Below are positions 9,091 to 29,226 of a stretch of 60,508 nucleotides of DNA, one piece after another (within the stretch, counting starts at the first letter, position 1; the number at the start of each line of letters is the position of its first letter). Both the position numbers and the translations under genes were made by a program. The stretch lies in sequence record DRR378314_2501; one strand, given 5' to 3'. The notes below the pieces were generated by a model. The model was not told the DNA's origin. It saw only the letters and a list, made by a program, of their open reading frames with translations, and made no database searches.

Positions 9091-9109
9091 AATTTAAGGA
9101 GGGACACAC

Positions 9110-11184: not shown

Positions 11185-11209
11185 AACCGCAGGCTTGCGT
11201 GTTGTACTA

Positions 11210-11235
11210 GTCCCGGGCGTTTCGGTGCCCGGGAC
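11210..11235 (+). promoter_or_regulatory. GC-rich stem-loop with UUCG tetraloop downstream of hcp (mRNA stabiliser or partial terminator)
   Basis: GTCCCGGGCGT-TTCG-GTGCCCGGGAC, 9 Watson-Crick pairs plus 2 G-U pairs; no U-tract. Confidence 0.55.
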
Positions 11236-11277
11236 CACTCGCATTGAACTACACAGAGTTTCAGGGGGAAGCGCTTC

Positions 11278-12577: not shown

Positions 12578-12578
12578 C

Positions 12579-14456
12579 GTGGATACCAGGCTCCTGGAAC
12601 ATTACGAGACCGAGCTGAACTATCTGCGTGACATGGGCGCGGAGTTTGCTGCGGCCTATCCGAAGGTTGCGTCACGTCTGGGAATGGAAGGGGTCGAAGT
12701 GCTCGACCCCTATGTCGAGCGCTTGCTCGAAGGGGTGGCGTTCCTTTCGGCGCGGGTGCAGCTGGAATTGCAGCTGCAGTATCCGAACTTCACCTCCAAT
12801 CTGCTGGAGATCATCTATCCGCATTATCTGGCGCCGACGCCGTCGATGATGATTGCCCAGTTGGAGCCGGATATTTCGAACTCTGCTGTTAAAGCAGGCT
12901 ATAAGTTGCCACGGGGCACCGTTCTGAGATCCGGCCTGACCGATGGAATCCAAACCGCAATTGAGTTTCGCACGGCTGCTGATCTGACTCTATGGCCGAT
13001 CGAGATCGCCGAAGCGCAGTATATTGATGGACGCGGAGAATTGGTCGCGGCGGGTGTCGCGCAGGGATTTGATGCGCGAGCAGGGATACGATTGCGCTTG
13101 CGACGCAAAGATGGCGAGCCCATCCGCGAGCTTGATATGAATAGCCTGGGCCTCTACCTGACCAATGCAGCGGGAAACAGCTGGCCGCTTCTGGAACTGC
13201 TGTGCACGCAGGTCACGGGGGTGGTCGGACGGAGTACGGATCGGCGTGACGACTGGCAGGTGCCGCTGCGCGGTGCACAAGTCCGGCAGAAAGGATTTTC
13301 GCCCGAGGAAGCCCTGTTGCCGGTACCTCGACGTGTCTTTGATGGGTATCGCCTGCTTCAGGAATATTTCGCACTGCCGGAACGGTTCCGTTTTGTGGAG
13401 CTGACAGAGCTCAAACCCGCGATCCAGCAGGCCAAAGGTGCCGACGTCGATATCTATATCTTGCTGCGCGAAGGGATGAAGAACATCGATCCGATCATCG
13501 TCCCGGATGTGTTCGAACCGCATGCTGTTCCGGCTGTGAATCTGTTTGAAAAGCGCTGCGACCGTGTGCGTGTTCTGTCCAAGGACACCGAGCATCACGT
13601 CATCCCGAACCGAACTGCCGGGCTTGATTTTGAAATCTATGCATTGAAATCGGTGACAGGTATCAGTGGCGATGGTGAGGATGATGTGACCTTCAGGCCA
13701 TTCTATTCCGCAACCGATCTGACCGCCGCGGGAGAGGGACATCCGGCGTATTATACCCTGAAGCGCAAAATGCGTCAGCGCTCGGAAAAAGAACGTTTGC
13801 GCGGAGTGCGCTCGTCTTATCTCGGATCCGAGGTCTATTTGACATTGGTGGATCGGGCGCAGGCCCCCTATAGCGCGGGGTTGGAGCAACTGGCGGTCAA
13901 GGCGCTTTGTACCAACCGAGATCTGCCGATGCTGTTGGTCACCGGAAACGAAGATGTCTTTCATCTGCCAGATGGTGGGCCGGTCAAGAAGATCATATTG
14001 CCGATTTCTCCGACACGTCCGCATCCGACCCTAGCACAGGGTGATACGGCATGGCGGCTCATATCGCACCTCAGTCTGAACTACCTGTCCATCGCAGAGA
14101 GTGACAAGGGACAGTCTGCGTCAGCTCTGCGTGAGCTTATTGGCCTCTACGCACCGCTTGGGAACCGGGTAACCGAAAAGCAGCTCGAGGGCATCCTGTC
14201 GGTCTCAACTCGTCCTATTGTGCGCCGGATGAGCGATGAAGTTCTCTCTACAGCGGTGCGCGGAATTGAGGTCTCCCTCGGTTTCGACGAAAGCTATTTT
14301 GAAGGCACCAACATCTATGCGCTTGGTGCGGTGCTGGAGCGGTTTTTCCGCGGGTATGCCAGTATCAACTCCTTTACTGAAACTGTCTTGAAGACGGAAA
14401 AACGCGGGGAAATTGCGAGATGGCGACCAGAGAAAGGTCTCGGGCGCGTTCTGTGA
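12579..14456 (+). CDS. tssF: T6SS baseplate subunit TssF
   Basis: YETELNYLRDMGAEFAAAYPKVA.RL, DPYVERLLEG.AFL.AR, GYRLLQEYF.LPERF.F, WRLISHLSLNYLS, YASINSF. Confidence 0.96.
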   Translation: MDTRLLEHYETELNYLRDMGAEFAAAYPKVASRLGMEGVEVLDPYVERLLEGVAFLSARVQLELQLQYPNFTSNLLEIIYPHYLAPTPSMMIAQLEPDISNSAVKAGYKLPRGTVLRSGLTDGIQTAIEFRTAADLTLWPIEIAEAQYIDGRGELVAAGVAQGFDARAGIRLRLRRKDGEPIRELDMNSLGLYLTNAAGNSWPLLELLCTQVTGVVGRSTDRRDDWQVPLRGAQVRQKGFSPEEALLPVPRRVFDGYRLLQEYFALPERFRFVELTELKPAIQQAKGADVDIYILLREGMKNIDPIIVPDVFEPHAVPAVNLFEKRCDRVRVLSKDTEHHVIPNRTAGLDFEIYALKSVTGISGDGEDDVTFRPFYSATDLTAAGEGHPAYYTLKRKMRQRSEKERLRGVRSSYLGSEVYLTLVDRAQAPYSAGLEQLAVKALCTNRDLPMLLVTGNEDVFHLPDGGPVKKIILPISPTRPHPTLAQGDTAWRLISHLSLNYLSIAESDKGQSASALRELIGLYAPLGNRVTEKQLEGILSVSTRPIVRRMSDEVLSTAVRGIEVSLGFDESYFEGTNIYALGAVLERFFRGYASINSFTETVLKTEKRGEIARWRPEKGLGRVL

Positions 14457-15493
14457 CCCGGGATGAGGACAGCCTGTTCGATACGCTTGTCGATGCGCCG
14501 CAGGAACACCACCTGTTTCAGGCGCTGCGTGTGCTCGAGGCGCATTTCTCCGACCGTCCCCGTCTGGGCGAAAGTCGGCGCCCACGGCAGGATGCACTAC
14601 GTCTGGGTCAGGAAGCGGAACTGGCTTTCCCCCCGTCAACGATCGCGGACTTCAAGCCAGGTAGCGCCACCGGACCGGCGCGGCTGACCAATAGGTTCTT
14701 TGGGCTCTTCGGTCCATCAGGTCCACTGCCCTTACATATGACCGAATACGCGCGGGATCGTAAACGAAACCATCGCGACCCTACCATGATCGCGTTTGCA
14801 GATATGCTGACGCATCGGATGTTGAGCCTGTTGTACCGGGCGTGGTCGCAAGGCGCGCCAGCGGTCAGTTTTGATCGGGGCGATGATCCGATGGCGCGCA
14901 AGGTTGCCGCACTTTCGGGGTATCATGGCGATCACCTGCAGGATCGCGATGCCATGCCGGACATGGCGCGGTTGCATTATGCCGGGCATCTAGGTCAACA
15001 GGCGCGCAATCCCGAAGGTTTGGTGTCGATCCTGTCGTCCTTCCTTGAGGTCGAGGTCCGGCTGGAGGAATTCGTCGGGTCGTGGCTTGAGCTGGAGCCG
15101 GATGATCGCTGGAAACTCGGCATGGGATCGCTGGGGCAGACGACCTCGATCGGTGACAAAGTCTGGAGCCGATCCGCCAAATTTCGAATCCGGATCGGTC
15201 CGCTCTCACTTGCGGACTACGAACGTCTCTTGCCGGGTGGCCAAAGCCTTGAACGGGTGCGTGCGATCGTGCGCTCCTATGTCGGTGATTGCCTGGATTG
15301 GGATGTGAACCTCATCCTTGCCGGAGACGAGGTTCCGCGGGCCAGCCTTGGCGGAACAACTCGGCTAGGACACACCAGTTGGGTCAGAACACGTCCTGAC
15401 CCGGAGGTCGAGCGGTCAGATGCCGGCGATCTATACCTGTACCCTGCGCATGCCAGTGCGGGACATGATAATTCGACAGAGGGAAGGACCTGA
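14453..15493 (+). CDS. tssG: T6SS baseplate subunit TssG
   Basis: FFGLFGPSGPLPLHMTE, FADMLTHR..SL.YRAW, F.IRIGPL...Y..LLPG; GTGA overlap with tssF. Confidence 0.94.
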   Translation: MTRDEDSLFDTLVDAPQEHHLFQALRVLEAHFSDRPRLGESRRPRQDALRLGQEAELAFPPSTIADFKPGSATGPARLTNRFFGLFGPSGPLPLHMTEYARDRKRNHRDPTMIAFADMLTHRMLSLLYRAWSQGAPAVSFDRGDDPMARKVAALSGYHGDHLQDRDAMPDMARLHYAGHLGQQARNPEGLVSILSSFLEVEVRLEEFVGSWLELEPDDRWKLGMGSLGQTTSIGDKVWSRSAKFRIRIGPLSLADYERLLPGGQSLERVRAIVRSYVGDCLDWDVNLILAGDEVPRASLGGTTRLGHTSWVRTRPDPEVERSDAGDLYLYPAHASAGHDNSTEGRT

Positions 15494-15494
15494 T

Positions 15495-18215
15495 ATGACC
15501 GAGATCAGCCGTGTCGCCTTGTTTGGCAAGCTCAACAAACTGGGGTATCAGGCCGTCGAAAGCGCGACCGTCTTTTGCAAAATGCGGGGAAACCCCTATG
15601 TGGAACTGGTCCACTGGTTGCATCAGCTTCTGGCGCAGCAGGACAGCGATATTCACCGCATCATCACACATTACGAATTGGACATCGGCAAGATCGCGAC
15701 GGAGTTGACCCGAGCGCTCGACCAACTGCCGCGCGGCGCGTCGACGATTTCCGATCTCTCAGATCACCTGATGGACGCAATGGAACGCGGCTGGGTTTGG
15801 GGCTCATTGCTGTTCTCCGCCAGTCATGTGCGGTCGGGGCACCTGTTGCTGGGCATGCTGAAGACCCCCGCGTTGCGGAATATTCTCAGCACAATGTCGC
15901 CTGAGATCGCCCGCATCGGTGCGGATGATCTCGCGGATAATTTTGATAACGCGACCGACGGTTCACCCGAGGAGCAACTGGTTGCTCAGGATGGGTCCAG
16001 CGTCGGCGGCGGTGCGGTGCCGGGAGAGGCCTCCAGCGCGATGTCGCCCGGAGCGATGGGACAGGGCGAAGCGCTGGAGCAATTCTGCACTGATCTCACC
16101 GCGCAAGCAAAAGCTGGTGAGATAGATCCAATCGTGGGGCGGGATGAGGAAATCCGCCAGATTGTCGATATTCTGATGCGCAGACGTCAGAACAACCCGA
16201 TCCTGACTGGCGAGGCCGGTGTGGGCAAGACTGCGGTGGTTGAAGGATTTGCGCTGCGTATCGCGCGCGGCGATGTGCCCCCTGCGTTGCAAGAGGTGCG
16301 CTTGCTGGTGCTCGACGTGGGCTTGTTGCAGGCAGGTGCAAGCATGAAGGGTGAGTTCGAGAACCGCTTGCGGCAAGTGATTGATGAAGTTCAGGCCAGC
16401 CCGACACCCATCGTGATGTTTGTTGACGAGACGCATACTCTGGTCGGGGCGGGAGGTGCGGCTGGAACGGGAGATGCGGCCAACCTGTTGAAGCCAGCGC
16501 TCGCGCGCGGCACACTGCGCACGATCGGCGCAACCACATGGGCAGAATACAAAAAATATATCGAGAAAGACCCAGCTCTTACCCGCCGCTTTCAGGTAGT
16601 GAAGGTTGAAGAACCATCAATTCCAAAGGCGATTTTGATGATGCGCGGCATTGCCTCAATGCTGGAGCAACATCACCGCGTTCAGGTGCTCGACGAAGGT
16701 ATCGAAGCCGCCGTTGGGCTTTCGGCGCGGTATATTCCAGCCCGCCAATTGCCCGATAAATCGGTCAGCCTGCTCGATACCGCCTGTGCGCGCGTCGCAG
16801 TTAGCCAACATGCGGTTCCGGCTGAAGTGGACGACAGCCAGCGTCGGATCGAAGCTTTGAATACCGAACTGGAGATCATCGGTCGCGATGAAACCGCAGG
16901 CTATGAGGTGGCGGACCGGCGTGAGGCGGTGACCGTCGCAAAAGAGGCTGAGGAGCAACGTCTCGGGGTGCTTACCGCGCAGTGGGATAAGGAAAAGGCC
17001 TGCGTCGACGCGATCCTCGACCTGCGTGCCCAGCTGCGCGCCGGGGCCGCTCCGGTGGATTCGGTAACAAACGCGGCTGAAGCCGACGCTGCGGATGCCG
17101 GCAATAGCCCACTGTCAGACGAGGACCGGGCAAGCCTCATGGCCGATCTTAAGGCAAAGAATGCCGAATTGGACACGCTACAGGGCGACAGTCCGCTGAT
17201 CCTGCCCATTGTCGATCACCAAGCTGTTGCTGCGGTGGTGGGGGATTGGACTGGCATTCCCGTGGGGCGTATGGTCAAGGACGAGATCCAGACCATTCTC
17301 AGCCTCGAAGAACACCTGGCGAAGCGCGTGATTGGCCAGGATCATGCGATGAAGATGATTGCCAAGCGCATTCAAACCAGCCGAGCAGGACTCGACAATC
17401 CCAACAAACCGATCGGGGTGTTCATGCTGGCAGGGACCTCAGGTGTCGGGAAAACCGAGACGGCACTGGCGCTGGCGGAAGTCATGTACGGAGGTGAACA
17501 AAACGTCATCACCATCAATATGTCCGAATATCAGGAGGCACATACGGTTTCTTCACTGAAGGGCGCGCCTCCGGGGTATGTCGGATATGGCGAGGGCGGC
17601 GTTTTGACAGAAGCCGTGCGGCGCAAGCCCTATGCTGTGGTGTTGCTGGATGAGGTGGAAAAAGCCCACCCGGATGTACATGAGATCTTTTTCCAGGTGT
17701 TTGACAAGGGCGTGATGGAAGACGGTGAGGGCCGTGTCATCGACTTCAAGAATACGCTGATCTTGCTCACCACCAATGCGGGCTCGGACATGGTGATGGA
17801 CATGTGCTCCGATCCGGACCTTTTGCCGGAGCCCGATGGGCTGGCAAAGGCGTTGCGCGACCCGCTTCTGAAAGTGTTCCCACCAGCCCTGCTAGGGCGC
17901 ATGGTGACAATCCCATACTATCCGCTGTCGCCGGACATGATCGCCGAAATTACCAAATTGCAGCTGGGTCGGATCAAGAAACGTGTCGAAACCGCACATG
18001 GCGTGCCCTTCACGTACTCCGATGCCGTGGTCGACACGATCGTGGAGCGCTGTCAGGAGCTTGAAAGCGGGGGCCGCATGATTGACGCCATCGTCACCAA
18101 CTCCATGCTGCCGGATATTTCGAACGAATTCCTGCGCCGCTTGATGGAAGGGCAGCAGGTAACAACCGTCAGCATCGACGTGGACAATGGTGAATTCACC
18201 TATGGCTTCGACTGA
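15495..18215 (+). CDS. tssH: T6SS AAA+ ATPase TssH/ClpV
   Basis: [28 protein letters not shown], second Walker [30 protein letters not shown]. Confidence 0.97.
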
Positions 18216-18257
18216 TCGTTGCAGGTCGGGCCGACCAGGCACAACCGCCGACCTTGC

Positions 18258-18269
18258 GGGGGGGGGGGG
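18258..18269 (+). repeat. Homopolymeric G12 tract in the clpV / sodium-channel intergenic region
   Basis: 12 consecutive G read directly from the sequence. Confidence 0.8.
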
Positions 18270-18388
18270 CGTAAAACCGGTTTTCGCCTGAGGGCGGGAG
18301 CCACGGGCCAAACCGGCCGGGCAAACAATACCGCTGCGGCGGGGCTTCCTGGCAATGGGAAGCCGAGAAGGACCAGGGAGACGAAACT

Positions 18389-19246
18389 GTGTCAGACATG
18401 ACCGCCAGCCCGACGTTCGGGAGCCGCGCATGGGCCCAAGCCGTAATTGAACGTCCTGCCGTGACCCATGCAATTCTTGGCGTGATCATCTTTAATGCCG
18501 TGACGCTTGGTCTTGGTACATCGGAAGTCGTGCGCACTCACTTTGGCGGATTGCTTGATGTCATCGACAGCATCGTGCTGACGATTTTCGTGGTTGAGCT
18601 TGCGCTGAAGCTCTATGCCTATGGGCTGCGTTTCTTTTCCTCCGCCTGGAATGTGTTTGATCTGGTCGTGGTTGCCGTTGGCATGCTGCCGGACCGGCAA
18701 GGATTGTCGGCGTTGCGAGGGTTGCGTGTGTTGCGCGCCATGCGATTGCTGTCGGTGATCCCGCAAATGCGTGCCGTGGTTCAGGCCCTTCTGGATGCGC
18801 TGCCCGGCATGGGGGCGGTGATCGTGATGATCTCGATCGTGTTCTACATTTTTGCAGTGATGGCGACGCTGATGTACGGGCCCGCATTTCCAGAGTGGTT
18901 CGGTACGCTTGGCCGATCACTCTATTCGCTGTTCCAGATCATGACACTGGAGAGTTGGTCGATGGGGATTGTGCGACCGGTGATGGAGGTTTTCCCCTAC
19001 GCCTGGGCGTTCTTTGTGCCATTCATTGTGGTGACCGCATTCTCTGTGCTCAATCTCTTCATCGGTTTGTTGGTCAATACCATGCAGTCCGCGGTGGAAG
19101 AGGAAACAGAGGCAGAAATTCACAAGTTGCGTGACCTGGTTAAGTCAGAAACGGACGTGGTGGGTGATCATGTTGTCGAATTGCGCGATGAGATCCGCGC
19201 GCTGCGGGCTGAAGTTGCAGCGATGAGGGAAGACAAAAATGGCTGA
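18389..19246 (+). CDS. Bacterial voltage-gated sodium channel (NaChBac/BacNaV family, Ion_trans)
   Basis: Six TM segments; S2 IFVVEL.LK, S3 WNVFD, S4 LRGLRVLRAMR (RxxRxxRxxR), pore helix and filter SLFQIMTLESWSMGIVRP, S6 LNLFIG, C-terminal coiled coil. Confidence 0.96.
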   Translation: MSDMTASPTFGSRAWAQAVIERPAVTHAILGVIIFNAVTLGLGTSEVVRTHFGGLLDVIDSIVLTIFVVELALKLYAYGLRFFSSAWNVFDLVVVAVGMLPDRQGLSALRGLRVLRAMRLLSVIPQMRAVVQALLDALPGMGAVIVMISIVFYIFAVMATLMYGPAFPEWFGTLGRSLYSLFQIMTLESWSMGIVRPVMEVFPYAWAFFVPFIVVTAFSVLNLFIGLLVNTMQSAVEEETEAEIHKLRDLVKSETDVVGDHVVELRDEIRALRAEVAAMREDKNG

Positions 19247-22200
19247 TAGCTCGCAAAAATTTGTTGCCCGTAATCGCGCACCACGTGTTCAGATTGAATA
19301 TGATGTCGAACTCTATGGTTCGGAGAAAAAGGTTCAGCTGCCCTTCGTTATGGGGGTCATGTCGGATCTGACAGGGAAATCGAAACAGCCTCAACCGGCA
19401 ATAGCGGACAGAAAGTTCCTTGAAATTGATGTCGACAATTTCGACGAACGGATGCGCTCCATGGCGCCACGCGCTGCCTTCAACGTTCCAAATACACTGA
19501 CTGGCGAAGGTAATATCGCAGTTGACCTCACGTTTGAGAGCATGGCCGATTTTACCCCCGGTGCCATCGCGTCCAAAGTGGATGCTCTACGGCCGCTTTT
19601 AGAGGCACGCCAACAGCTCGAGCAGCTGATGACGTATATGGATGGTAAATCCGGTGCCGAAGAACTGATCGAAAAAATCCTTAAGTCACCCGCATTGTTG
19701 TCATCGCTTGCAGGGGAAACAGACGAAGCGCGCGCAGAGGGCGAAGCTGCGTTGCAAGGGCTGCGTGAGATTGAACTGCCTGTCGAGGACTTGGGGCCGA
19801 CGCACCAGGACGTACTTGGGACGATGGAGGGGCAGGTATCGGAAGAGTTGCCATCCGAAGACCCCTCTATCGGGATTCTCGCCGGGCTGAGCGGCTCCGC
19901 CCCGAATGCGGATACAAAGGAGGATGACACCCGTGACATCCTGACTTCGCTCGCCTCGACTGCTCCAGAGGACAAGCCCGCGGCAACAGGTGTTGCGGAG
20001 ACTCTTTCGGACCTTGCTGCAGCAGCACCAGAGACGTCAGCTGAGGAGGATCGCAGCCAGGCTGTGCTGTCATCCCTGGCGGAGCAACGCACCGAGGTTT
20101 CTGAAGAAGACCGATCCATGGACGATGCGCTCAATGCGCTCGGAGATTCGGCAGATGCTGACATTCCGGATACTGACACGGCGGCGGAAATTCTGGGTAG
20201 TCTTACGCCTCCTGCCACGGCTGAAGACATCAATGAAGGAGACGGTTCAGCGGAAGTCCTTGCCGAATTGGCGACGCAGCAACCGCCGGCCCGGGACGCG
20301 CCTGTTGACGCGGATCAAGTTCTGCAAGGGCTTGATGCGCCCGAGGTCCCGGTAGCTGCCACAGCCGGTGTCGATGATGTCCTCGCAGGGCTGGACACCA
20401 TCGAAGAGGAAACGCCTGATCCAGAGATGGATTTGAGCACTGTTCTTGGTGAGTTCGAAGCGACAGAGGCGACAGAACACTCAAACTTCGATGAAGTTCT
20501 GTCAGGTCTGGAGCCTGCCGTCGTGGACGACGACGAGGCAGCGACGAACCTTGATGATTTGCTTGGAGAACTCGAGACGCCAGAGCCCGAACCTGATACG
20601 AAAGTTGCGGATGTGCTGGCTGATATTGATGTGGCAGCGGAGTCCGCTGAGGAAACCCAGCCCGACCTTACGACGATGCTAGATGATGTCCCCGCTGCGC
20701 AGGAGGAGGGTACCAGTGCAGAGGATGTGTTGCCAGGACTGGGCGCTGTGACCGAGGTCGCTGAGAGCAGTGATGTCGATCTCGAAGATCTGCTGGGAGA
20801 CACGCCGCCACCTGAAGCGGACACTGGCAGCGGTGCCGATGACACCTTGGCAGGGTTGGACATAGTTGAGGACGACGCGCCGAGCGCAGACCTCGACCTT
20901 GAGGATATGCTTGGCGATCTGGATATAGCCGAGCCAGAAGACGCGCTGGGTGCGGATGACATTCTGTCCTCGCTCGACCTTTCGGACGATGCGAGCGATG
21001 ATGGTGTTGATAGCGTCACCTCCGACGGGCTTTCAGGGTTGGTCGCAGATGATACCCCGACGCCTGATCCTTTAGCTGATGCAGAACTCTCACTGGATCT
21101 GGACGATCTGTTCAGCGATTCATCAGATACAAATTCCGGTCCCGCACAAGGCAGCGACCACGACGTCAATGACCTCGACCTTGATACGCAGATCCCGAGC
21201 GATAACGGTGCGCTTGATGATGAATTTGATCTCGATGCGCTGCTCGCAGATGAGCCAGCGACAGATGATACTACGACGCGCCGGGATGATTTGGTGGCGA
21301 TGGACGAGAAAACATCCGAGATCACCGATGTTCCGGCCGAGGCCGGCGCGGGGGATGGTCTGGATGATCTCCTGGAAGGTCTCGGAATTGACGAAAACCC
21401 GGGAGATGATGACGATGACCTCGATGCACTGTTCGGTGCTCTGGACCAAGAAGTCGCGGCGGATGATAGCAGCGATTCTGATGCTCTTGACGCCCTCTTG
21501 GGGGATCTGGAAGGCGACGTAGAAGACCTTGATGTCATGTTGGAGGACCAGAGCATAGCAACAGGGTCCGAGCAGCCCGGAGCTGGAATACAGCACGAAC
21601 CGGAGCTTGCCTACGGCACAATGTCCACAGCGCGCCCAAATCCGCAGAAACTGGAACGCAAGCGGTTTCGGATGGCGGTTTTCGGTGATTTCACCGGCCG
21701 CGCGGCCAAGGGACAATTGGAGATCGGAGACACCCTGGCAAACCGCAAACCTATGGTTCTTGATCCCGATACCTTTGAAGAGGTGATTGAGAGCTTCGCC
21801 ACTGAGCTGGTCCTGCCAATCGGCAAGGATGGCGCAGGGATTTCGGTCAAACTCGGGGAGTTCGATGATCTCCATCCGGATGAGCTTTTTGACAACGTGG
21901 AGCTATTTGCCGAACTGATCAGCCTGCGCGCACAACTTCAGAATGGTGTCACCAAAGATCGCGCAATGACAACGCTCACTACATGGGCCGAAGCGCATGG
22001 TACGCCCGCGCGCGCGCCGAAATCCCGATCTGGTGGCAATGTGGTGCCCGCGGACAAACGGCTCAGTGATTTCCAAATGTTGATCGGGAACAGTGCGAAT
22101 AGCCTCCGTACGGCCTCTCCGGTCGAGGAGATGCTTGCGCGAGTGGTTGGTCCGCACATTCGCGCATTGCCCGCCCCGAACCTTGGCGCAATGCAGGAAG

Positions 22201-23312
22201 CGGTGGATCTGGCACTTTCCGATGCGATGCGGTTGGTGCTGCACCATCCGGAGTTCCAGTTGATCGAAGCCCAGTGGCGTTCGCTGGATCTTATGCAGCG
22301 TTCGGTTGAGGTCGATGATACGCTTGAAGTCATGCTGTATGACGTTTCGGCAGAGGAGCTCGCCGCGGATCTCGCCACTCATGAAGATCTATCCGAATCC
22401 GGGTTTGTACGGCTGCTGACGGAAGCCCCAATGGATGAAGAGAATGGACGTGGGGCCTATTCGGCGATGCTCGGCCTCTATACGTTTGAGGAAACCCCGC
22501 CTCATGCGGAACTTTTGGGGCGTATAGCGCGCGTGGCTGCGCATGTGGATGCGCCTTTCCTGGCTGCAATCACTCCGGGATTTTGGGACACGGTCAAATT
22601 GGATCGTCCCAAAGTCGTAGCTGACGCCTGGAACACTCTGATGGGCATGCCCGAAGCTGGACACCTTGGCCTGTTGACGCCGCGTTTCCTGTTGCGGCGC
22701 CCCTATGGTGCAAAGAGCGAACCTATCGATCCATTTGATTTCGAAGAGTTTACCCAATCCGCAGGCTTGCGTGGTATGCTTTGGGGAAATCCTGTCGTGC
22801 TGGCTGGGATATTGATGGCGAAGTCCTTCAAGGAGAATGGTCCTTCGCTTCAGCTGGGCTCTATTATGTCGCTCGGCGAGATGCCGTATCACTACGTGAA
22901 TGATCGCTTTGGCGATCAGGTCGCGCTGCCCTGTACTGAACGCAACGTGGATCTGGACAAGATCGCTATTGCAAAAGAGCGCGGGTTCATGCCGATTGCC
23001 TCTGTCCGCGGACGCGACGAAATTCGATTGACCTCGTTCAATTCTCTGCGCGGAGATATGCTTCTCGGCCCTTGGATCGGAGAACCGGCACCCCAGCCAT
23101 CGCCGCCTGACCCAAGGCAAGAGCAGACCACATCAGATCCAGTGAACACAGGCGACGAGGATGATCTGGGACTGGATTTGGATTTTGACGACAACGGTGA
23201 GAGCGCCGATGATGATCTCGACGCGCTGCTCGCTGGTTTTGATGATGATGACGATACTGATTTAGACGGCGATATCGATGCCGACCTTGAGGCACTTTTG
23301 AATGACCTATGA
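19239..23312 (+). CDS. Giant sheath fusion protein: TssB + acidic repeat linker + TssB-like + truncated TssC-like domain + acidic tail
   Basis: aa 1-158 about 80% identical to TssB at 8575 (manual alignment); from about aa 807 RFRMAVFGDFTGR...LDPDTFEEV...FDDLHPDEL (TssB-like); LVLHHPEFQLIEAQWRSL, AAHVDAPFL, PRFLLRRPYG (TssC-like). Confidence 0.85.
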   Translation: MADSSQKFVARNRAPRVQIEYDVELYGSEKKVQLPFVMGVMSDLTGKSKQPQPAIADRKFLEIDVDNFDERMRSMAPRAAFNVPNTLTGEGNIAVDLTFESMADFTPGAIASKVDALRPLLEARQQLEQLMTYMDGKSGAEELIEKILKSPALLSSLAGETDEARAEGEAALQGLREIELPVEDLGPTHQDVLGTMEGQVSEELPSEDPSIGILAGLSGSAPNADTKEDDTRDILTSLASTAPEDKPAATGVAETLSDLAAAAPETSAEEDRSQAVLSSLAEQRTEVSEEDRSMDDALNALGDSADADIPDTDTAAEILGSLTPPATAEDINEGDGSAEVLAELATQQPPARDAPVDADQVLQGLDAPEVPVAATAGVDDVLAGLDTIEEETPDPEMDLSTVLGEFEATEATEHSNFDEVLSGLEPAVVDDDEAATNLDDLLGELETPEPEPDTKVADVLADIDVAAESAEETQPDLTTMLDDVPAAQEEGTSAEDVLPGLGAVTEVAESSDVDLEDLLGDTPPPEADTGSGADDTLAGLDIVEDDAPSADLDLEDMLGDLDIAEPEDALGADDILSSLDLSDDASDDGVDSVTSDGLSGLVADDTPTPDPLADAELSLDLDDLFSDSSDTNSGPAQGSDHDVNDLDLDTQIPSDNGALDDEFDLDALLADEPATDDTTTRRDDLVAMDEKTSEITDVPAEAGAGDGLDDLLEGLGIDENPGDDDDDLDALFGALDQEVAADDSSDSDALDALLGDLEGDVEDLDVMLEDQSIATGSEQPGAGIQHEPELAYGTMSTARPNPQKLERKRFRMAVFGDFTGRAAKGQLEIGDTLANRKPMVLDPDTFEEVIESFATELVLPIGKDGAGISVKLGEFDDLHPDELFDNVELFAELISLRAQLQNGVTKDRAMTTLTTWAEAHGTPARAPKSRSGGNVVPADKRLSDFQMLIGNSANSLRTASPVEEMLARVVGPHIRALPAPNLGAMQEAVDLALSDAMRLVLHHPEFQLIEAQWRSLDLMQRSVEVDDTLEVMLYDVSAEELAADLATHEDLSESGFVRLLTEAPMDEENGRGAYSAMLGLYTFEETPPHAELLGRIARVAAHVDAPFLAAITPGFWDTVKLDRPKVVADAWNTLMGMPEAGHLGLLTPRFLLRRPYGAKSEPIDPFDFEEFTQSAGLRGMLWGNPVVLAGILMAKSFKENGPSLQLGSIMSLGEMPYHYVNDRFGDQVALPCTERNVDLDKIAIAKERGFMPIASVRGRDEIRLTSFNSLRGDMLLGPWIGEPAPQPSPPDPRQEQTTSDPVNTGDEDDLGLDLDFDDNGESADDDLDALLAGFDDDDDTDLDGDIDADLEALLNDL
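19715..21560 (+). repeat. Degenerate protein-level repeats (about 20-aa period, core h-D/E-D/E-h-L-x-x-L) forming the acidic linker; boundaries approximate
   Basis: TRDILTSL, MDDALNAL, AAEILGSL, ADQVLQGL, VDDVLAGL, FDEVLSGL, LDDLLGEL, LEDLLGD, LEDMLGDL, LDDLLEGL, LDALLGDL and others. Confidence 0.75.
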
Positions 23313-23384
23313 ATTTGTAGTCCGAAACTCTTTACCCAGGGCTGAGGCGCGCCTCGCCGGTGCTCGGGACAGAAAGGAGAAGCC

Positions 23385-25577
23385 ATGACCGAAAGTAAAG
23401 CCCATGAAAATGACGTCGTTTGGATGTCTGGGTCTTATTCGGTAAAAGGGCTTATGATGCGCCGCGCCATTGTGCGTGAAGGATTGAGCAAACTTACCGA
23501 GACGACGATCGAATTCCAATCTCGCAACTCCGCCGTGTCGCTCGATGACCTAGTGGGGCAGACCATGAACCTGCATGTCGTGACCGAGGGGGGGAAGGAA
23601 CAGAAGTTTTCCGGACTTTGCATCTCGGTCGAAAATTTCGGGTTTCGGGACGGCTATACTCAGTTCGTGGCCGAAGTCAGGCCATGGTTCTGGCTGTTGA
23701 CCCGAACCGAAGACTGCCGGGTGTTCCAGAACATGTCGGCTCCGGATATCATCAAACAGATCCTGTCGGAGCACGGGTTCTCCGACTACAAAGACAGCTT
23801 GTCCAGTAGCTACGAGAAACGTGAATACTGTCTGCAGTACCGAGAGAGCGACTACGCCTTTATCTGTAGATTGATGGAAGAGGAGGGGGTTTATTTCTTC
23901 TTTGACAGCAACACCAGCCAGTCAACTGCAGAAAAGCTCGTTTTTGCGGATGGTCTCAGTGCTCACAAGCCGATCAGTGAAAGTGCCACTGCGGAGTTCA
24001 ACATTCGCGACGACGCAGATCGACGCCGCAAGGAACATGTGGCCGAGCTGAGCAAGGTCGAGCAGGTCACCCGCGGAAAGGTCACTCTCAACGACTTTGA
24101 TTTCAACACACCGCAGGCCGACCTCAAGGTGAGCGACGCACAATCCAAGGGTAAGCATCAGTACAAGACGTTTGAGGTCTATGACTATCAGGCACACTAC
24201 AGGAAAGAGACAGGGCTGGGCACCGGGTTTGCCCGGGCGCGCATGGACGCGGAAGCGCTGACCTATCAACAATGGCGCGGGGCGTCCTCTCTACGGACCA
24301 TGGGGGCTGGCTATACCTTCAAGCTGACCAAGCATGACGATACGGATGCCAACAAGGACTTCCTTGTGGTTGAGGCTACGCATTACCTGAAAGTCGACAG
24401 CGAGTTTGGCGAAAGGGACCGCGGTGCCAAGAAGGGCGGCAGCTCCGAAGAAATGCGCCGTGATTTGAAGGCGCAGAACCTCGACTTTCCGAAAGAAGCT
24501 GAGAAAGACAGTTATGCCAACACCTTTCGGGTGGTCGAAAAGTCGGTACAGTACCGTGCTCCTCGTGTGACCCCATGGCCTGAGGTGCCAGGCATCCAGA
24601 CGGCCACCGTTGTGGGCAACTCGGGCGAGGAGATTCTGACCGACGAACACGGCCGGGTGAAAATTCAGTTCCACTGGGATCGCGAAGGCAAAAAGAATGA
24701 AACCTCTTCATGTTTCGTACGGGTGATGACACCTTGGTCGGGCAAGGACTGGGGTATGGTCGCGGTGCCACGCATCGGCCAGGAGGTCGTCGTACAATTC
24801 GAAGATGGCAACCCGGATCGCCCGATCGTCACCGGCATGCTTTACAATGCCGAGACGAAACCACCGTTTTCATATCCCGACGACCAGACGCAATTGGGCA
24901 TCAAGACCAATTCCTCAAAGGGCGGTGGCGGCTATAACGAATTGATGTTTGATGACAAGGCAGGTGCTGAGCTAATGCGCATTCAGGCGCAGAAGTATCA
25001 TCAGACCCTGGTCAAAGACCGATTATCGATGACCGTAGGCCTAGACGCCATTGATAAGGCCGTCGCCTCCGTCGATGAAAACTCCTACGATCTCACGATC
25101 GAGCAGAACATGAACGAAACGGTCAAGACTGGTGACCGGACCGAAATTGTCGAAACGGGCAACAAGATCGAAACGGTGAAGACGGGAAACTACACGGAGA
25201 CCATTGAAACCGGCGACAAGACGATGACCATCGAAACGGGTAACCTGACGGAGAGTATCGATACCGGTGACGTGGAGGTGACCATCGGTCAGGGCAGTCT
25301 GACAGAGACCATAAGCCAGGGCAATCATACGGAAACCGTGAGCCTTGGTGATATCACCACTGAAGCATCGGCTGGGAAGATCGCGATCTCCGCCGGAATG
25401 GAAATCACGCTGACGGTAGGAGGGTCGTCGATTAAAATCGACAACTCGGGTGTTACGATAAGTGGTCCGATGATCAAGTTGTCGGCTGATGGGATGCTGG
25501 AAGCGAAATCCCCGCTGACAACCGTCAAGGGCGATGGAATGCTGACCCTCAAGGGCGGCGTCACCATGATCAACTAG
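23385..25577 (+). CDS. vgrG: T6SS spike protein VgrG without an evolved effector domain
   Basis: REYCLQYRESDYAFICRLMEEEG.YFFF, GIQTATVVG..GEEI.TDEHGRVKIQFHWDR, PRIGQEVVV.F.DG.PDRP, NELMFDDK.G.E. Confidence 0.96.
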   Translation: MTESKAHENDVVWMSGSYSVKGLMMRRAIVREGLSKLTETTIEFQSRNSAVSLDDLVGQTMNLHVVTEGGKEQKFSGLCISVENFGFRDGYTQFVAEVRPWFWLLTRTEDCRVFQNMSAPDIIKQILSEHGFSDYKDSLSSSYEKREYCLQYRESDYAFICRLMEEEGVYFFFDSNTSQSTAEKLVFADGLSAHKPISESATAEFNIRDDADRRRKEHVAELSKVEQVTRGKVTLNDFDFNTPQADLKVSDAQSKGKHQYKTFEVYDYQAHYRKETGLGTGFARARMDAEALTYQQWRGASSLRTMGAGYTFKLTKHDDTDANKDFLVVEATHYLKVDSEFGERDRGAKKGGSSEEMRRDLKAQNLDFPKEAEKDSYANTFRVVEKSVQYRAPRVTPWPEVPGIQTATVVGNSGEEILTDEHGRVKIQFHWDREGKKNETSSCFVRVMTPWSGKDWGMVAVPRIGQEVVVQFEDGNPDRPIVTGMLYNAETKPPFSYPDDQTQLGIKTNSSKGGGGYNELMFDDKAGAELMRIQAQKYHQTLVKDRLSMTVGLDAIDKAVASVDENSYDLTIEQNMNETVKTGDRTEIVETGNKIETVKTGNYTETIETGDKTMTIETGNLTESIDTGDVEVTIGQGSLTETISQGNHTETVSLGDITTEASAGKIAISAGMEITLTVGGSSIKIDNSGVTISGPMIKLSADGMLEAKSPLTTVKGDGMLTLKGGVTMIN

Positions 25578-25586
25578 GCATGAAGA

Positions 25587-26219
25587 ATGGCTGATATGTT
25601 TGAAAAACTGGTGAAATTGCCAAAAGAACCGGTCGCGAAGATCCTCTCGCGTCAGCAGGTTCTGTTGAAAACGCCCCTCAAGTGCGAGGTCAGCGCTACG
25701 GCGCCTGTTGTACTTAAGGAGCTTTATGAAAAAGCGGCGATGATCGACCTGTTGCGGTTGATGGGCATCCTGCTTCCTCCGCGTGAGCGGGTGTGGTGGG
25801 CCTGTTTAGCTGCTCGCGATTATATCGGTCCGCGTGGACCCAAGGATCCGCCCTCACTCATCACCTCTGAGGCTTGGGTTCTAGACCCTACCGAGGACAA
25901 CCGCCAAGCGGCCCGGATCACGATCGATCATGCCTATGTGGACGATGATACGGTGAACTGTGCCTGGGCCGTGACCTATCACGACGGGACTTTGGGGCCG
26001 GGCGATTTGCGTCAATATCCCGCTCCTGCTGGTGCGGCAGAGGCCGCGGCATTCGCCATGAATATGGTAGCCTTGGGACATTTATCTGATAAGTTTGAAG
26101 AGCATGGCTATATTCTCATCGAACGTGCGCTGGATATCGCACGCGGTGGCAATGGGCGTGTTGGTTCTGCAAGTGCAGAGCTGGCCGACGCACCGAAAAC
26201 CGCTTCGGAACAATCTTAG
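25587..26219 (+). CDS. vgrG-associated conserved protein (resembles DUF6931 family)
   Basis: LLPPRERVWWACL, WV..PTE.NR..A, C-terminal IERALDIA.GG; position after vgrG; family name from memory, needs HMM check. Confidence 0.7.
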   Translation: MADMFEKLVKLPKEPVAKILSRQQVLLKTPLKCEVSATAPVVLKELYEKAAMIDLLRLMGILLPPRERVWWACLAARDYIGPRGPKDPPSLITSEAWVLDPTEDNRQAARITIDHAYVDDDTVNCAWAVTYHDGTLGPGDLRQYPAPAGAAEAAAFAMNMVALGHLSDKFEEHGYILIERALDIARGGNGRVGSASAELADAPKTASEQS

Positions 26220-26242
26220 GTCCGAATAGGAGAAACGACGAC

Positions 26243-26329
26243 ATGGGCAGACCCGCTCTTGAGGGGAACAGGCGTGCTGGCACGGCTCACCACCGATCTG
26301 GCGAGCGGGAGGCATTTTCATGGGCGTAA
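26243..26329 (+). pseudogene. Possible 5' remnant of a PAAR gene (28-codon mini-ORF starting MGRPA)
   Basis: AGGAGA RBS at 26228-26233, ATG GGC AGA CCC GCT; sits where PAAR would be expected; stop overlaps the tagH start. Confidence 0.3.
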
Positions 26330-27831
26330 GGCTGCGTTTCCAATCGTCCGGTGCGATGCCGTCCGATGCCGCGCCTTTGATCCTGCGTGGACCCAGTCTG
26401 ACAATTGGGCGCGGAGCAACAAATGATATTGTGCTACCGGATCCCGACCAGATGCTATCGCGCAATCACTGCGTGATCGAGGACCATGGCAGCCATGTGG
26501 CCGTTGTCGATCTGAGTTCGAACGGTACTTTCCTGAATTATGGAAAGATGCCGCTGGGGCCGACGCCGACACCTCTGAATGATGGAGATGTTCTGACGGT
26601 TGGGTCTTATGAACTTGCCGTAGAAATTACGCAGGATGCGGCGTTGCCAGATCCGCTGGCCGTTGCGCCTCTTGATGCAGACCCAATGTCTCCGGGGCGT
26701 GCTGAGAATGCACCTGACCCGCTGGCTTTGCTCGATGATGCAGGGCCGGGCGGTGATTTTCTGGATGATTTACTTGGTGAGCGCGCGCCAACGGGGCCGT
26801 CGCAACTCAACCCGGTTGATCCAATTGATGATCTGCTGCCCCCGATGGGTGATGAAGAAGACCCTTTTTTCCAGAAACCAGACGCGGGTCGGCAAGGCCA
26901 TGGGGCAAGCTTGCCCGCGCACAACCCCGCGACGCAGGATGGGTTTAGTCCTCAACAGTCGCCCAGAGCCGACAGCGTGATCCCGGATGATTGGGACGAT
27001 GAGTTCTTTTCCGGAATCGGCGGCGGCACTCCACCTGCGGTCTCTCAGAATCCGGTCGCCACGCCTCAGATAACACAGCCTCCTGCCTCTGAGCCTGAGC
27101 CTGAGCCTACCGTGCCCGGTCTTGATGATGATCCTTTTGCCGAACCAGCCGAGGCCGCCGAAGATCCCCAAACCGCGCCGGCGAAACCAGTTGTCCCCAG
27201 CAAGCCCAAACCCGAAGCGAAAGTAGCTGATCGCGCGCATGATCACGCGGGGGCATTCATTGATGCGCTCCAGGTTGAGCAGCTGACGCTGGAAGAGAGT
27301 GATCTCGAACCGGTGATGGAGCGGATGGGGCGTGTCATGCGGACGTTCATCGTGGGCTTGCGCGAAATTCTAATGACCCGGACCTCGATCAAATCTGAAT
27401 TCCGGATCGAGCAGACCATGATTTCGGCCGGGGGCAACAACCCCCTGAAGTTCTCGATTTCGCCGGAGCAGGCGATCGAGGCGATGGTCAAGCCGCGCGC
27501 GCGAGGGTATCTGGATGCAGAGGCCGCTGCAGAGGAAGCACTGCGCGACATCAAAGCTCATGAGGTCGCGATGGTGACCGGTATGGAAGCTGCGTTGAAG
27601 GGCATTCTGGCCAAGCTTGATCCCAAACTTCTGGAGGGTCAGATCGAAAAGCGAGGCGGGCTAGGGGGGCTGCTGCGCAACAAGAAAGCCCAATATTGGG
27701 ACATTTACGAAGAACATTACGCAGAAATCTCTGATCAGGCGGAAAACGAGTTTCACGATCTGTTCAGCCGGGAGTTCGCGCGCGCTTACAAAGCGCAGAT
27801 GGATCGATTGAAAGAAGACGTCGACACTTAG
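26320..27831 (+). CDS. tagH: T6SS FHA-domain protein TagH/Fha
   Basis: FHA motifs LTIGRG...D..LPDP...SR.HC, D.SSNGTFLN; C-terminal NNPLKFS, DI.AHE.A...GM.AAL, F.REFARAY. Confidence 0.94.
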   Translation: MGVRLRFQSSGAMPSDAAPLILRGPSLTIGRGATNDIVLPDPDQMLSRNHCVIEDHGSHVAVVDLSSNGTFLNYGKMPLGPTPTPLNDGDVLTVGSYELAVEITQDAALPDPLAVAPLDADPMSPGRAENAPDPLALLDDAGPGGDFLDDLLGERAPTGPSQLNPVDPIDDLLPPMGDEEDPFFQKPDAGRQGHGASLPAHNPATQDGFSPQQSPRADSVIPDDWDDEFFSGIGGGTPPAVSQNPVATPQITQPPASEPEPEPTVPGLDDDPFAEPAEAAEDPQTAPAKPVVPSKPKPEAKVADRAHDHAGAFIDALQVEQLTLEESDLEPVMERMGRVMRTFIVGLREILMTRTSIKSEFRIEQTMISAGGNNPLKFSISPEQAIEAMVKPRARGYLDAEAAAEEALRDIKAHEVAMVTGMEAALKGILAKLDPKLLEGQIEKRGGLGGLLRNKKAQYWDIYEEHYAEISDQAENEFHDLFSREFARAYKAQMDRLKEDVDT

Positions 27832-27863
27832 GTGTCAGCCCGTCGCAGAGAGAGGAGAGCCAG

Positions 27864-29204
27864 GTGTCCTGGGACAGCAAGGTGCTTTGGACCGAGGGGT
27901 TGTTTTTGCAACCTCATCATTTCCAGCAGTCCGACCGCTATATGGAAGCGCAGGTCGCAGGCCTTGCGCGGCGTCTGGTTCCCTACGCGTGGGGGTTGAC
28001 GGGGATAGAGATCGACTTTGAGGCTTTGAAAATTGGGCAGTTCGCACTGAAGTCCTGTGAAGGGCTAACCCATGACGGCGCGGTGTTTCGCGTACCGATG
28101 GCGGACGATCATCCACCAGCTCTTGAGGTGCCGCAGACCGTCAAGGACTGCATCGTTTGCCTGACTGTGCCCCAGCGGCGTCAGGGTGGGACCGAGGTGG
28201 ACCTCAGTGGTGCCGAGCGATCTGCCAGCCGTCTGCGTCCCGGCAAACAGGAAGTCACTGATGTGACCTCGGTTGATCGCAAACCCGTCCAGTTGGACGT
28301 TGGGAAACTACGATTGCAGTTCGCTCTTGAAGTCGACGACATGGCGGATCTTCTCTCGATCCCGGTGGCCCGTATCATCGAAGTGCGTGCGGACAAGGAA
28401 ATTGTTCTGGACCAATCCTTTGTTCCGTCCGTGCTGGATATTCGTGCTGCCGCGCCATTGAATGATTTTCTGCGCGAACTGGAAGGACTGCTGGCACACC
28501 GCATGGAAGCATTGTCCGGGCGCTTATCCGAGGCAGGCGGTGCACGCGGTGTTGCCGACGTATCCGACTTTATGCTCCTGTCTCTGGTGAACCGGAGCTT
28601 GCCGCTCGTGCGTCATCTTCGTGAGATTGAAAACCTGCATCCGGAACGTTTGTTCGCAACCGCGGCGGGGCTTGCTGGTGAGTTGTCGGCATTTATGAGC
28701 TCCGACAAGGTGGTGCCCGAGTTTCCCCCTTATACGCATGACAATCTGAGCGCCTGCTTCGCGCCGGTGATCCGCGTGCTCCGTCAGTATCTCAGCTCGG
28801 TACTGGAACAGACCGCAATTCCGATCAAGCTGGAACCGCGCAAGTATGGCATATCGGTTGGCGTGATCGCAGATCGCAAACTGATCGGGAATTCCGGATT
28901 TGTTCTGGCGGTGAAAGCCGACGTTCCGGCAGAAGATGTGCGCCGTCATTTCGCAGGTCAGGCCAAGATTGGTCCCGTAGAGGAAATCCGTCAGCTTGTG
29001 AACTCAGCATTGCCGGGCATCACATTGCGCCCTCTGCCTGTTGCGCCACGGCAGATCCCCTATCACTCCGGCGTCGTCTATTTCGAGATGGACGCCGAAA
29101 GCCCCTATTGGGGCAAGATGACCACCTCCGGTGGGGTCGCCGTACACGTGTCCGGTCAATATCCGGGGCTCAATATGGAGCTCTGGGCCATTCGCAATGC
29201 GTGA
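27864..29204 (+). CDS. tssK: T6SS baseplate subunit TssK
   Basis: KVLWTEGLFLQPHHFQQSDRY, LVNSALPGI.L.PLPVAPRQIPYH.G..YF, ELWAIR. Confidence 0.96.
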   Translation: MSWDSKVLWTEGLFLQPHHFQQSDRYMEAQVAGLARRLVPYAWGLTGIEIDFEALKIGQFALKSCEGLTHDGAVFRVPMADDHPPALEVPQTVKDCIVCLTVPQRRQGGTEVDLSGAERSASRLRPGKQEVTDVTSVDRKPVQLDVGKLRLQFALEVDDMADLLSIPVARIIEVRADKEIVLDQSFVPSVLDIRAAAPLNDFLRELEGLLAHRMEALSGRLSEAGGARGVADVSDFMLLSLVNRSLPLVRHLREIENLHPERLFATAAGLAGELSAFMSSDKVVPEFPPYTHDNLSACFAPVIRVLRQYLSSVLEQTAIPIKLEPRKYGISVGVIADRKLIGNSGFVLAVKADVPAEDVRRHFAGQAKIGPVEEIRQLVNSALPGITLRPLPVAPRQIPYHSGVVYFEMDAESPYWGKMTTSGGVAVHVSGQYPGLNMELWAIRNA

Positions 29205-29226
29205 ACGCGGCTGAAGGAGTAAGCCA

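Follow-up and report, generated by a model that had tools for sequence, protein, structure and literature searches.

The window analysed here, the whole 60,508-nucleotide stretch of sequence record DRR378314_2501, carries a type VI secretion system (T6SS) cluster in which one long gene, tssCL, joins in a single reading frame a complete copy of the sheath protein TssB, a long acidic linker, a second sheath-like head and an acidic tail. The encoded protein is, as judged from its domains and surroundings, a member of the TssCL family named by Suria et al. 2022 (PMC9515649), who described it in silico in roseobacter T6SS1 clusters with its function untested. As given in that paper's main text, TssCL has a pair of VipA domains that share 86% and 26% identity with TssB, and one VipB domain with 31% identity to TssC, and occurs in 20 of the 28 reference genomes of roseobacters that have a T6SS1 cluster, where canonical tssB and tssC are kept and no tssJ is present. 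The same two VipA domains and one VipB domain, a cluster with tssB, tssC, tagJ/impE and fha, and a roseobacter group setting are shared by the window and the published family. In a literature search the name TssCL was found in PMC9515649 only, and the main text of that paper contains none of the words channel, ion transport, acidic, disordered, linker or repeat. An earlier model-made reading of the bare letters, referred to below as the original prediction, had outlined the double-headed protein; the 82-aa tail with two conserved motifs, the periodicity of the linker, the overlapping upstream channel gene and the TssCL name go beyond it. The gene and its modules are laid out as follows (aa, amino acids; ORF, open reading frame).

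19239..23312, plus strand: tssCL ORF (P0001), confirmed from its ATG as the one 1357-aa frame that had been predicted
19239..19733, plus strand: module 1, residues 1-165, whole TssB paralogue (Pfam VipA, TIGR03358)
19734..21608, plus strand: module 2, residues 166-790, acidic linker of units of about 21 residues (composition and core counts)
21609..21953, plus strand: module 3a, residues ~791-905, TssB-like part of the head, without the TssB N-terminal arm (VipA profile)
22056..23060, plus strand: module 3b, residues 940-1274, TssC-like part of the head (hhalign, Pfam VipB, AlphaFold2, Foldseek)
23064..23309, plus strand: module 4, residues 1276-1357, acidic tail (composition, AlphaFold2 confidence)
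23214..23240, plus strand: tail motif 1, D-L-D-A-L-L-A-G-F, residues 1326-1334 (matrix score 23.2)
23283..23309, plus strand: tail motif 2, D-L-E-A-L-L-N-D-L, at the C-terminus, residues 1349-1357 (tail-motif matrix)

The N-terminal module looks like a functional sheath subunit. Residues 10-161 of TssCL match positions 2-154/155 of the Pfam VipA profile PF05591 (E 6.6e-67, 224.6 bits against a cut-off of 24), and the module passes the equivalog cut-off of TIGR03358 (211.6 bits against 97.25). It is identical to the canonical TssB of the window at 127 of 160 residues, including the C-terminal helix region; this 79% agrees with the roughly 80% and the many synonymous differences of the original prediction, since of the 160 codons compared 56 are identical, 71 differ synonymously and 33 non-synonymously, at 71% nucleotide identity. 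The excess of synonymous over non-synonymous differences identifies module 1, on codon evidence, as an old TssB paralogue under purifying selection, neither a recent copy nor a product of gene conversion. Fluorescent fusions at the C-terminus of TssB are functional. In the Pseudomonas aeruginosa sheath structure, residues M136-A172 of TssB1 are not traceable and lie at the outer extremity (PMC5807055), so that any chain continuing beyond the C-terminus of an embedded TssB would emerge outside; by analogy, a C-terminal extension on a sheath-embedded TssB is sterically plausible. Residues 6-18 of module 1 differ by one mismatch from the HsiB1 8-20 peptide bound by TagJ (PMC4239648). Because the module is complete and constrained, keeps this TagJ-binding stretch and has a C-terminus expected to face outward, it probably pairs with canonical TssC and enters the sheath, leaving the remainder of TssCL displayed on the outside.

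The linker that follows was predicted to be an acidic, disordered tether of about 650 aa. Its acidity stands (625 aa with 184 D/E against 12 K/R), but the picture of a plain disordered chain gives way to that of a periodic motif array. A loose core, hydrophobic-L-x-x-hydrophobic with acidic residues before it, occurs in 22 copies, compared with 3.6 +/- 1.8 and a maximum of 11 in 1000 shuffles, and the copies are mostly spaced by 21 residues (171, 192, 213, 234, 276, 297, 318 etc.). The strict matrix of the tail motif, at a threshold of 6, finds 4 copies in the linker and 0.09 in shuffles. At the DNA level the only tandem repeat in the linker is one 24-base two-copy row with a score of 34 (minimum allowed 30); with nearly no DNA repeat, it is therefore at the protein level that the periodicity of about 21 residues is kept. 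Among 18 TssCLs the linker varies from 267 to 1123 aa and holds 6-54 cores (r = 0.89), with a median core spacing of ~20-21 in most of them. This array of 6 to 54 units between species amounts to a natural linker-length series for studies of sheath dynamics; no linker array of ~21-residue motif units was found in print.

The tail, the last 82 residues of the protein, is likewise acidic (29 D/E against 1 K/R) and contains two copies of a closely related amphipathic motif, D/E-L-x-x-L-L-x-x-hydrophobic. Among 78 aligned sequences of head plus tail, the consensus of motif 1 is D-L-D-x-L-L-A-S/G-L/F and that of the C-terminal motif 2 is M/T/I-D/E-P/A-D/E-L-A/D-A-L-L-x-x-L; the four key leucines of the two motifs are invariant (78/78), and a tail ending of the window's type is found in all 80 loci whose head ORF reaches a stop. 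The AlphaFold2 model predicts both motifs to be helical, with a confidence (predicted local distance difference test, pLDDT) of ~56 and ~73, the latter for the last 8 residues, and the rest of the tail to be disordered. The same motif recurs in 2 to 6 copies in the acidic linkers of fusions with ImpA_N domains and in the longer tails of stand-alone heads, both described below, and the tail/linker motif resembles the E-F-A-x-L-L N-terminal helix of H1-class TssC. In eukaryotic adaptors such as paxillin, LD motifs with the consensus L-D-x-L-L-x-x-L form amphipathic docking helices. From its pattern, the TssCL motif reads as a docking helix present in many copies.

The distal head corresponds to the divergent TssB-like plus TssC-like fusion of the original prediction, including its early end before the C-terminal part of TssC. 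The profile scan proposed there finds two VipA matches, one VipB match and no VipB_2 match in TssCL. The second VipA stretch (residues ~810-902, profile positions 28-122, E 1.9e-9) belongs to a TssB-like part that is 25% identical to residues 6-132 of canonical TssB, and the VipB N-terminal domain PF05943 lies at residues 987-1270 (E 3.2e-39, 135.2 bits). VipB_2 (PF18945, gpW/gp25-like), which matches canonical TssC at E 3.8e-44, has no match in TssCL, the strings RFAHY and PHYQLE do not occur in the protein, and the head scores 129 bits against TIGR03355, below the equivalog cut-off of 271.5. Profile alignment with hhalign places head residues 161-495 (940-1274 of the protein) on residues 17-374 of canonical TssC with a probability of 100 (E 1.8e-62), pairing a head-internal L-S-D-F-Q-M-L-I-G with the canonical TssC N-terminal helix S-E-F-A-N-L-L-Q. 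The AlphaFold2 model of residues 780-1290, built from an 86-sequence alignment, reaches a pLDDT of 90.3 and a predicted template modelling score of 0.91. In a Foldseek search with it all nine matches at E <= 0.001 are TssC/VipB chains of solved sheaths, and a TssB chain comes up weakly; five solved sheaths are matched at E 1e-16 to 3e-10, led by P. aeruginosa TssC1 (5n8n_B, E 9.7e-17, 305 columns). The most conserved motifs of TssC domain 2 are retained.

By profile and model, the head is thus a single-chain combination of TssB 28-132 and TssC 17-374, a copy of sheath domains 2 and 3, which form the middle and outer layers. What it lacks is the part by which sheath subunits are held together: in the P. 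aeruginosa sheath the inter-subunit handshake is made in domain 1 by the N-terminal strand of TssB and the C-terminal strand of TssC (PMC5807055). The head has neither the TssB N-terminal arm (profile positions 1-27) nor the C-terminal gp25-like domain of TssC, nor TssC residues 1-16, and it has no domain 1. Because both handshake strands and domain 1 are missing, the predicted head should be a soluble, non-polymerising knob, and the "defective" head of the original prediction is apt in the sense of polymerisation, given the absence of VipB_2 and of the TssB N-terminal arm. No structural account of why the head should not polymerise was found in print.

A search with the head alone returned 371 proteins of 746-2375 aa; the 120 of these that were listed are 65-88% identical, all with PF05943 and all but three with PF05591, and the named sources among them are Phaeobacter, Leisingera, Ruegeria, Sulfitobacter and relatives. 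When the N-terminal TssB alone served as query, 252 long proteins sharing this module came up. In 17 of 82 loci one intact ORF runs from the TssB signature to the tail, and a further locus is in a single frame cut by the contig end. The complete plasmids of Leisingera methylohalidivorans and Qingshengfaniella alkalisoli have a continuous frame from the TssB start to the tail, of 1654 and ~1214 aa. The starts deposited by the Prokaryotic Genome Annotation Pipeline (PGAP) lie 450-850 bases downstream of the TssB start (14001-18965 in locus L001, ~14001-17642 in L002) and omit the N-terminal TssB, which accounts for many of the short lengths in databases; many entries of 750-1100 aa are probably start miscalls.

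Two observations weigh against a single frame. In locus L079, a Rhodobacterales contig (1-3521) from a metagenome-assembled genome (MAG), the TssB part is in frame 0 (open to 1774) and the head in frame 2 (open from 1101). The public run X1 contains 96% of the sampled words of tssCL, and its contigs span the whole stretch; they depart from the window at just two places, 20284-20286 and 21341-21345, where a net change of +1 base apiece would end the frame at residue 357. Both differences lie on the only two GCCGGC sites in 18300-23500 (20285-20290 and 21342-21347). Since they fall exactly on this palindrome, they are read as motif-specific base-calling errors, most readily ascribed to a modified motif that is systematically miscalled in one or other of the two data sets; the window version preserves both the palindrome and the frame of the relatives. 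The distribution of the miscalls suggests that GCCGGC is a modified (methylated) motif in the source organism. On these comparisons the single ORF is regarded as real and not as an artefact. Two further observations may be recorded here: the hexamer occurs 26 times in the window, and the linker of L079 is Ala-rich, with units of the A-L-A-A-L-R-E type, and not acidic. A second run, X2, which matches small parts only, at 90-95% likeness and chiefly within the channel gene, was not used.

The head with its tail proves to be far more widespread than TssCL itself. An HMMER search with the head among 1.84 billion representatives (E <= 1e-30) gave 968 matches, with ~25 long TssCL-type proteins first and then many proteins of 490-640 aa. 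These stand-alone proteins align over the whole head (query residues 10-510) at 31-48% identity and have the same Pfam signature as the TssCL head, a weak VipA match at 28-122 and a VipB N-domain without VipB_2. Acidic tails ending like that of the window are present in 22 of 85 aligned stand-alone heads; the remaining 63 end no more than ~25 residues beyond the fold. The tail-less branch, found in MAGs labelled Sedimentisphaerales, Methylomirabilis, Terriglobia, Nitrospirota and Deltaproteobacteria, sits in T6SS clusters with canonical tssB, tssC, tssA, tagJ and clpV. The tail-bearing branch (79 loci) covers Planctomycetota, Verrucomicrobiota, Acetobacteraceae/Rhodospirillales, Burkholderiales, Pseudovibrio and Rhodobacterales, and a tail-bearing head is also present in Eleftheria terrae. 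TssCL was reported in Alphaproteobacteria only, as far as the text of PMC9515649 goes; this limit holds for the TssB-fused form, bar one Microbulbifer-labelled protein, and fails for the head module.

These relatives also bear on the origin of the fusion. In the Rhodobacterales loci L066, L070, L080 and L081 an unfused head lies between clpV and vgrG, in the place of tssCL, with no second tssB. The scenario that the original prediction had named as its own refutation, two separate proteins in relatives and an artefactual fusion in the window, is rejected in that form: the fused ORF is conserved, and where relatives have the head unfused they lack an additional TssB gene altogether, so TssCL is not a read-through of two neighbouring genes. 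The gene order indicates that TssCL arose by placing a duplicated tssB and the motif array before an existing head gene, not by joining two neighbours. A parallel fusion is seen in proteins P0189, P0198, P0233 and P0252, one of them from a Planctomycetales genome, in which an N-terminal head is followed by an acidic, motif-bearing linker and then by ImpA_N, the domain of TssA-type proteins; the head gene also often adjoins tssA. The head with tail as a separate module, including the ImpA_N fusions, was not found in print, and a literature search for TssB/TssC fusions gave nothing else on TssCL or stand-alone heads. A non-polymerising, single-chain copy of the outer half of a sheath subunit with an LD-like acidic arm would be a widespread and ancient unit of H1-like T6SSs, and its fusions to TssB, in the sheath wall, and to a TssA-type protein, at the sheath end, are strong hints of its site of action.

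The cluster around tssCL comprises tssA, B, C, hcp, tagJ, tssE, F, G and clpV, then the channel gene, tssCL, vgrG, a DUF6931 gene, fha, tssK and tssL-OmpA, and finally tssM, tagF, pppA and, on the minus strand, ppkA. As predicted, canonical tssB and tssC are also present, in the same cluster and 10 kb upstream of tssCL. No TssJ family member was found by the profile scan among the window ORFs of at least 150 aa, shorter ORFs being outside the scan. The features used in the argument are these.

18389..19246, plus strand: BacNav-type voltage-gated sodium channel gene (Pfam Ion_trans E 3.8e-39), its stop overlapping the tssCL start
8575..9090, plus strand: canonical tssB (family profile match)
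9110..10606, plus strand: canonical tssC, with VipB, VipB_2 and the N-terminal helix S-E-F-A-N-L-L-Q (profile match)
11278..12087, plus strand: tagJ (ImpE family; profile match), marker of the H1-like T6SS class (PMC4239648)
15495..18215, plus strand: clpV, likely start M at 15495 in an ORF open from 15420, with Arg6 and Asp87 as in ClpV1
7437-8498: separate short tssA, present in the window
7437..37806, no strand assigned: whole T6SS cluster (Pfam scan of ORFs)

The gene immediately before tssCL encodes a 285-aa protein with a T-L-E-S-W-S selectivity filter, an arginine-rich S4 segment and a C-terminal coiled coil, similar to NavMs (5hvx, E 2.3e-79) and NavAb (3rvy, ~1e-73). By fold, filter, S4 and homology it is predicted to be a bacterial voltage-gated sodium channel of the BacNav type, and its stop codon overlaps the start of tssCL by 8 nucleotides. 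Of 22 roseobacter-type plasmid hits, 21 have an "ion transporter" at the match, and a channel homologue is present in 30 of 82 tail-bearing loci besides the window. In 23 of these 31 cases there is an overlap of 1-11 nucleotides between the channel stop and the first ATG of the head or TssCL gene, and it is seen with unfused heads as well, in Pseudovibrio and several alphaproteobacterial MAGs. Two Planctomycetota loci are arranged otherwise, with a divergent channel gene in L048 and one placed a gene downstream in L005; Pfam Ion_trans is confirmed in both. No channel match was found in 40 tail-less loci of at least 9 kb. From gene order, the coupling of channel and head is frequent, old and tight where present, and not universal. 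An apparent gene fusion of channel and head in L060 was rejected, the two parts being in different frames. The C-terminal domains of the channels are an ordinary BacNav neck and coiled coil, moderately conserved, and show no decisive sign of an interface. A literature search found no paper linking BacNav channels with T6SS.

Taken together, these observations are best accommodated if TssCL serves an H1-like (TagJ/ClpV1-class) T6SS as a composite accessory subunit, a sheath-inserted tether with a docking module and not a second kind of sheath, a reading to which a probability of about 0.45 may be assigned. The N-terminal TssB would pair with canonical TssC and replace an ordinary TssB in the sheath wall, as its sequence and the known structures suggest. 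With the last ~35 residues of TssB lying at the sheath's outer face, whatever follows residue ~165 would project outward, namely the 625-residue polyanionic arm of ~21-residue helix-motif units and the putatively non-polymerising knob. The knob with its acidic tail is the older, independent accessory, to which roseobacters added the duplicated TssB and the expanded array and which elsewhere became fused to ImpA_N. As the TssB module was fused to a pre-existing knob and tail, the fusion may serve to tether the docking module, together with the partners of its motifs and knob, to the sheath, outside which the arm and knob would act as a polyvalent docking device. Were the channel such a partner, sheaths would be anchored at the inner membrane and might also be coupled to its electrical state.

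Several points count against this interpretation. The TssB modules of TssCLs are only 76-81% identical between genera, compared with 89-98% for canonical TssB, and this faster evolution could reflect a relaxed or changed role. The monomer model gives the tail motifs moderate confidence (pLDDT 56 and 73), and the modelled motif might instead dock on the knob of its own chain. In the flanks covered, a channel is absent from about 52 of the 82 tail-bearing loci, more than half, as it is from the 40 tail-less loci of at least 9 kb, and the knob must therefore have a core function that does not depend on the channel. Where the channel is present, its adjacency is found largely in related Rhodobacterales and could in part be due to shared ancestry.

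For the channel, a role as direct partner of the knob or tail is a tentative proposal, though the favoured one among the candidate partners, suggested by the overlapping genes. The more specific version, in which the channel, as a BacNav tetramer of the inner membrane, is a working part of the T6SS that binds the knob or the LD-like tail motifs and, in roseobacters, is tied to the sheath by TssCL, is unlikely as matters stand. On that version, the site and timing of sheath building, holding or firing would be under the control of channel gating or of depolarisation, for example by the attack of a neighbour, and the BacNav channels of marine bacteria would gain a physiological role. The role of bacterial voltage-gated sodium channels is poorly understood, and a conserved operon link to a contractile weapon, in a coupling that spans several orders and a second phylum, makes their function testable in marine bacteria that are harmless and genetically tractable.

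Another partner to be considered is ClpV. TssCL could be a platform that, with TagJ, loads ClpV onto sheaths before contraction, or a decoy that buffers it. In its core, E/D-hydrophobic-x-x-L-L, the motif is similar both to the N-terminal helix of canonical TssC and to the head-internal helix aligned with it, and the TssC helix is the docking site of the ClpV N-domain in other T6SS classes (PMC5048182, PMC4239648). Multivalent motifs would suit a hexamer with six N-domains, the N-terminus of TssCL retains the TagJ-binding stretch, and clusters with flanks extending far enough do contain tagJ and clpV. The reading is weakened, however, because the ClpV of the window carries Arg6 and Asp87, Arg6 being invariant in 30 of 30 aligned ClpV N-domains, and these are the residues that block the helix groove in P. 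aeruginosa ClpV1 (PMC4239648). The N-domain of ClpV1 bound no HsiC1 peptide, and HsiC1 without residues 1-33 still bound ClpV1, according to the same source (PMC4239648). Tail-less heads also occur in clusters with clpV and tagJ, on which ground the idea that the tail tracks either gene was rejected. The chance that ClpV and TagJ explain TssCL is accordingly small.

It is also conceivable, in line with the original prediction, that TssCL acts on the sheath itself, as an end cap, stabiliser, ruler or cross-linker, with the knob binding sheath surfaces and the array running along the sheath, one motif per ring. The knob retains the most conserved TssC domain-2 motifs, it is fused to or neighbours TssA-type ImpA_N proteins in other phyla, and the linker is highly variable in length in units of ~21 residues. 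TssA-type ImpA_N proteins act at sheath ends, and TssA/TagA coordinate or stop sheath growth. Yet 6-54 motifs would reach far less than a cell-wide sheath, the coupling to a channel is not explained by a capping role, and the conserved motifs may be mere fold core, which makes such a function quite unlikely.

A threonine-phosphorylation scaffold appears improbable. Here the tail would dock on Fha (TagH) or be a substrate of PpkA, joining the knob to the Fha/PpkA/PppA/TagF switch, and all four genes, fha, ppkA, pppA and tagF, are present in the window. An Fha family gene is found in 32 of 45 tail-bearing loci of at least 15 kb and in 0 of 21 loci classed as tail-less, a contrast confounded by phylogeny and short metagenome flanks. 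The tail classifier, moreover, put the motif-ending loci L002 and L080 in the tail-less class, so that both the Fha and the channel contrasts drawn from that classification are approximate. In Acetobacteraceae/Rhodospirillales (L016-L042) the head gene stands immediately upstream of fha, and a conserved T-E-P-D opens the terminal motif. FHA domains prefer pT-x-x-D, and this start could, from its sequence, be a phospho-threonine site for an FHA protein. Threonine occupies the position in 24 of 78 sequences; in the window it is Ile.

Finally, read-through, misassembly or pseudogene decay leaving a frame with no function as one chain, to which the X1 insertions with their truncation, the shorter PGAP starts in relatives and the frameshifted L079 might point, is highly improbable in view of the exact coincidence of the X1 discrepancies with the two GCCGGC hexamers, the 17 other intact loci, the 252 long proteins with the N-terminal TssB, the purifying selection on that module and a periodicity kept without DNA repeats.

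Further genes were noted in and around the cluster. Caspase-domain (Peptidase_C14) proteins flank it on both sides, at 1388-2938 on the plus strand and at 39446-40984 on the minus strand, the latter with Sel1 repeats, and in the Qingshengfaniella locus (L002) a caspase family gene is likewise directly upstream of tssA. Upstream of tssA an operon at 2957-7334 (minus strand) encodes DUF4384/BON-like, ExbD-like and MotA/ExbB-like proteins and a family-less protein of 304 aa. At the other edge of the cluster are a Peptidase_M15_4 (D-Ala-D-Ala carboxypeptidase-like) protein (38563-39438, plus strand) and an OmpA-domain protein (37852-38418, minus strand), which could be a cell-wall-acting effector or accessory. 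The DUF6931 gene (25587-26219, plus strand) follows vgrG, as does its homologue in most Rhodobacterales-type loci, and the family is present in 20 of 45 tail-bearing loci of at least 15 kb; relatives have a PAAR gene beside it, for which the window has no space. Chemotaxis genes cheD, cheB, cheA, cheW and cheR adjoin the T6SS island at 41141-47709.

Among known systems, the canonical TssB-TssC protomer (VipA/VipB, TssB1C1) is similar in that module 1 is a whole TssB and the head shares the fold of domains 2 and 3, while the head differs from the protomer in being a single chain that a 625-aa linker connects to a TssB. An ImpA_N domain of the TssA/TagA family is absent from TssCL, whereas the same head and acidic arm are fused to ImpA_N in Planctomycetota and others. 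With the P. aeruginosa H1-T6SS the window shares tagJ, Arg6 and Asp87 of ClpV, and a TssC helix of the type E-F-A-x-L-L and not L-L-D-E-I-I (PMC4239648); that system has no TssCL, as far as PMC9515649 reports, and the link of TssCL to ClpV and TagJ is hypothetical. The channel has the same six-transmembrane Ion_trans fold, TLESWS filter, S4 arginines and coiled coil as the BacNav channels NavMs, NavAb and the NaChBac family, and differs in being encoded inside a T6SS cluster, overlapping the start of tssCL. FimV/HubP scaffolds, whose name appears in some Joint Genome Institute (JGI) records, are likewise long, acidic and repeat-bearing, a likeness at the level of composition only; no FimV family or domain matches TssCL in Pfam or NCBIfam at E <= 0.01. 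The agreement of the TssCL motif with the LD consensus of eukaryotic adaptors is a likeness of a short pattern, and both resemblances are most probably convergent. As a bare protein, the one described here would be one more TssCL; what is new beyond the named protein is the head+tail unit, the motif array, the proposed basis of non-polymerisation and the coupling to a channel gene.

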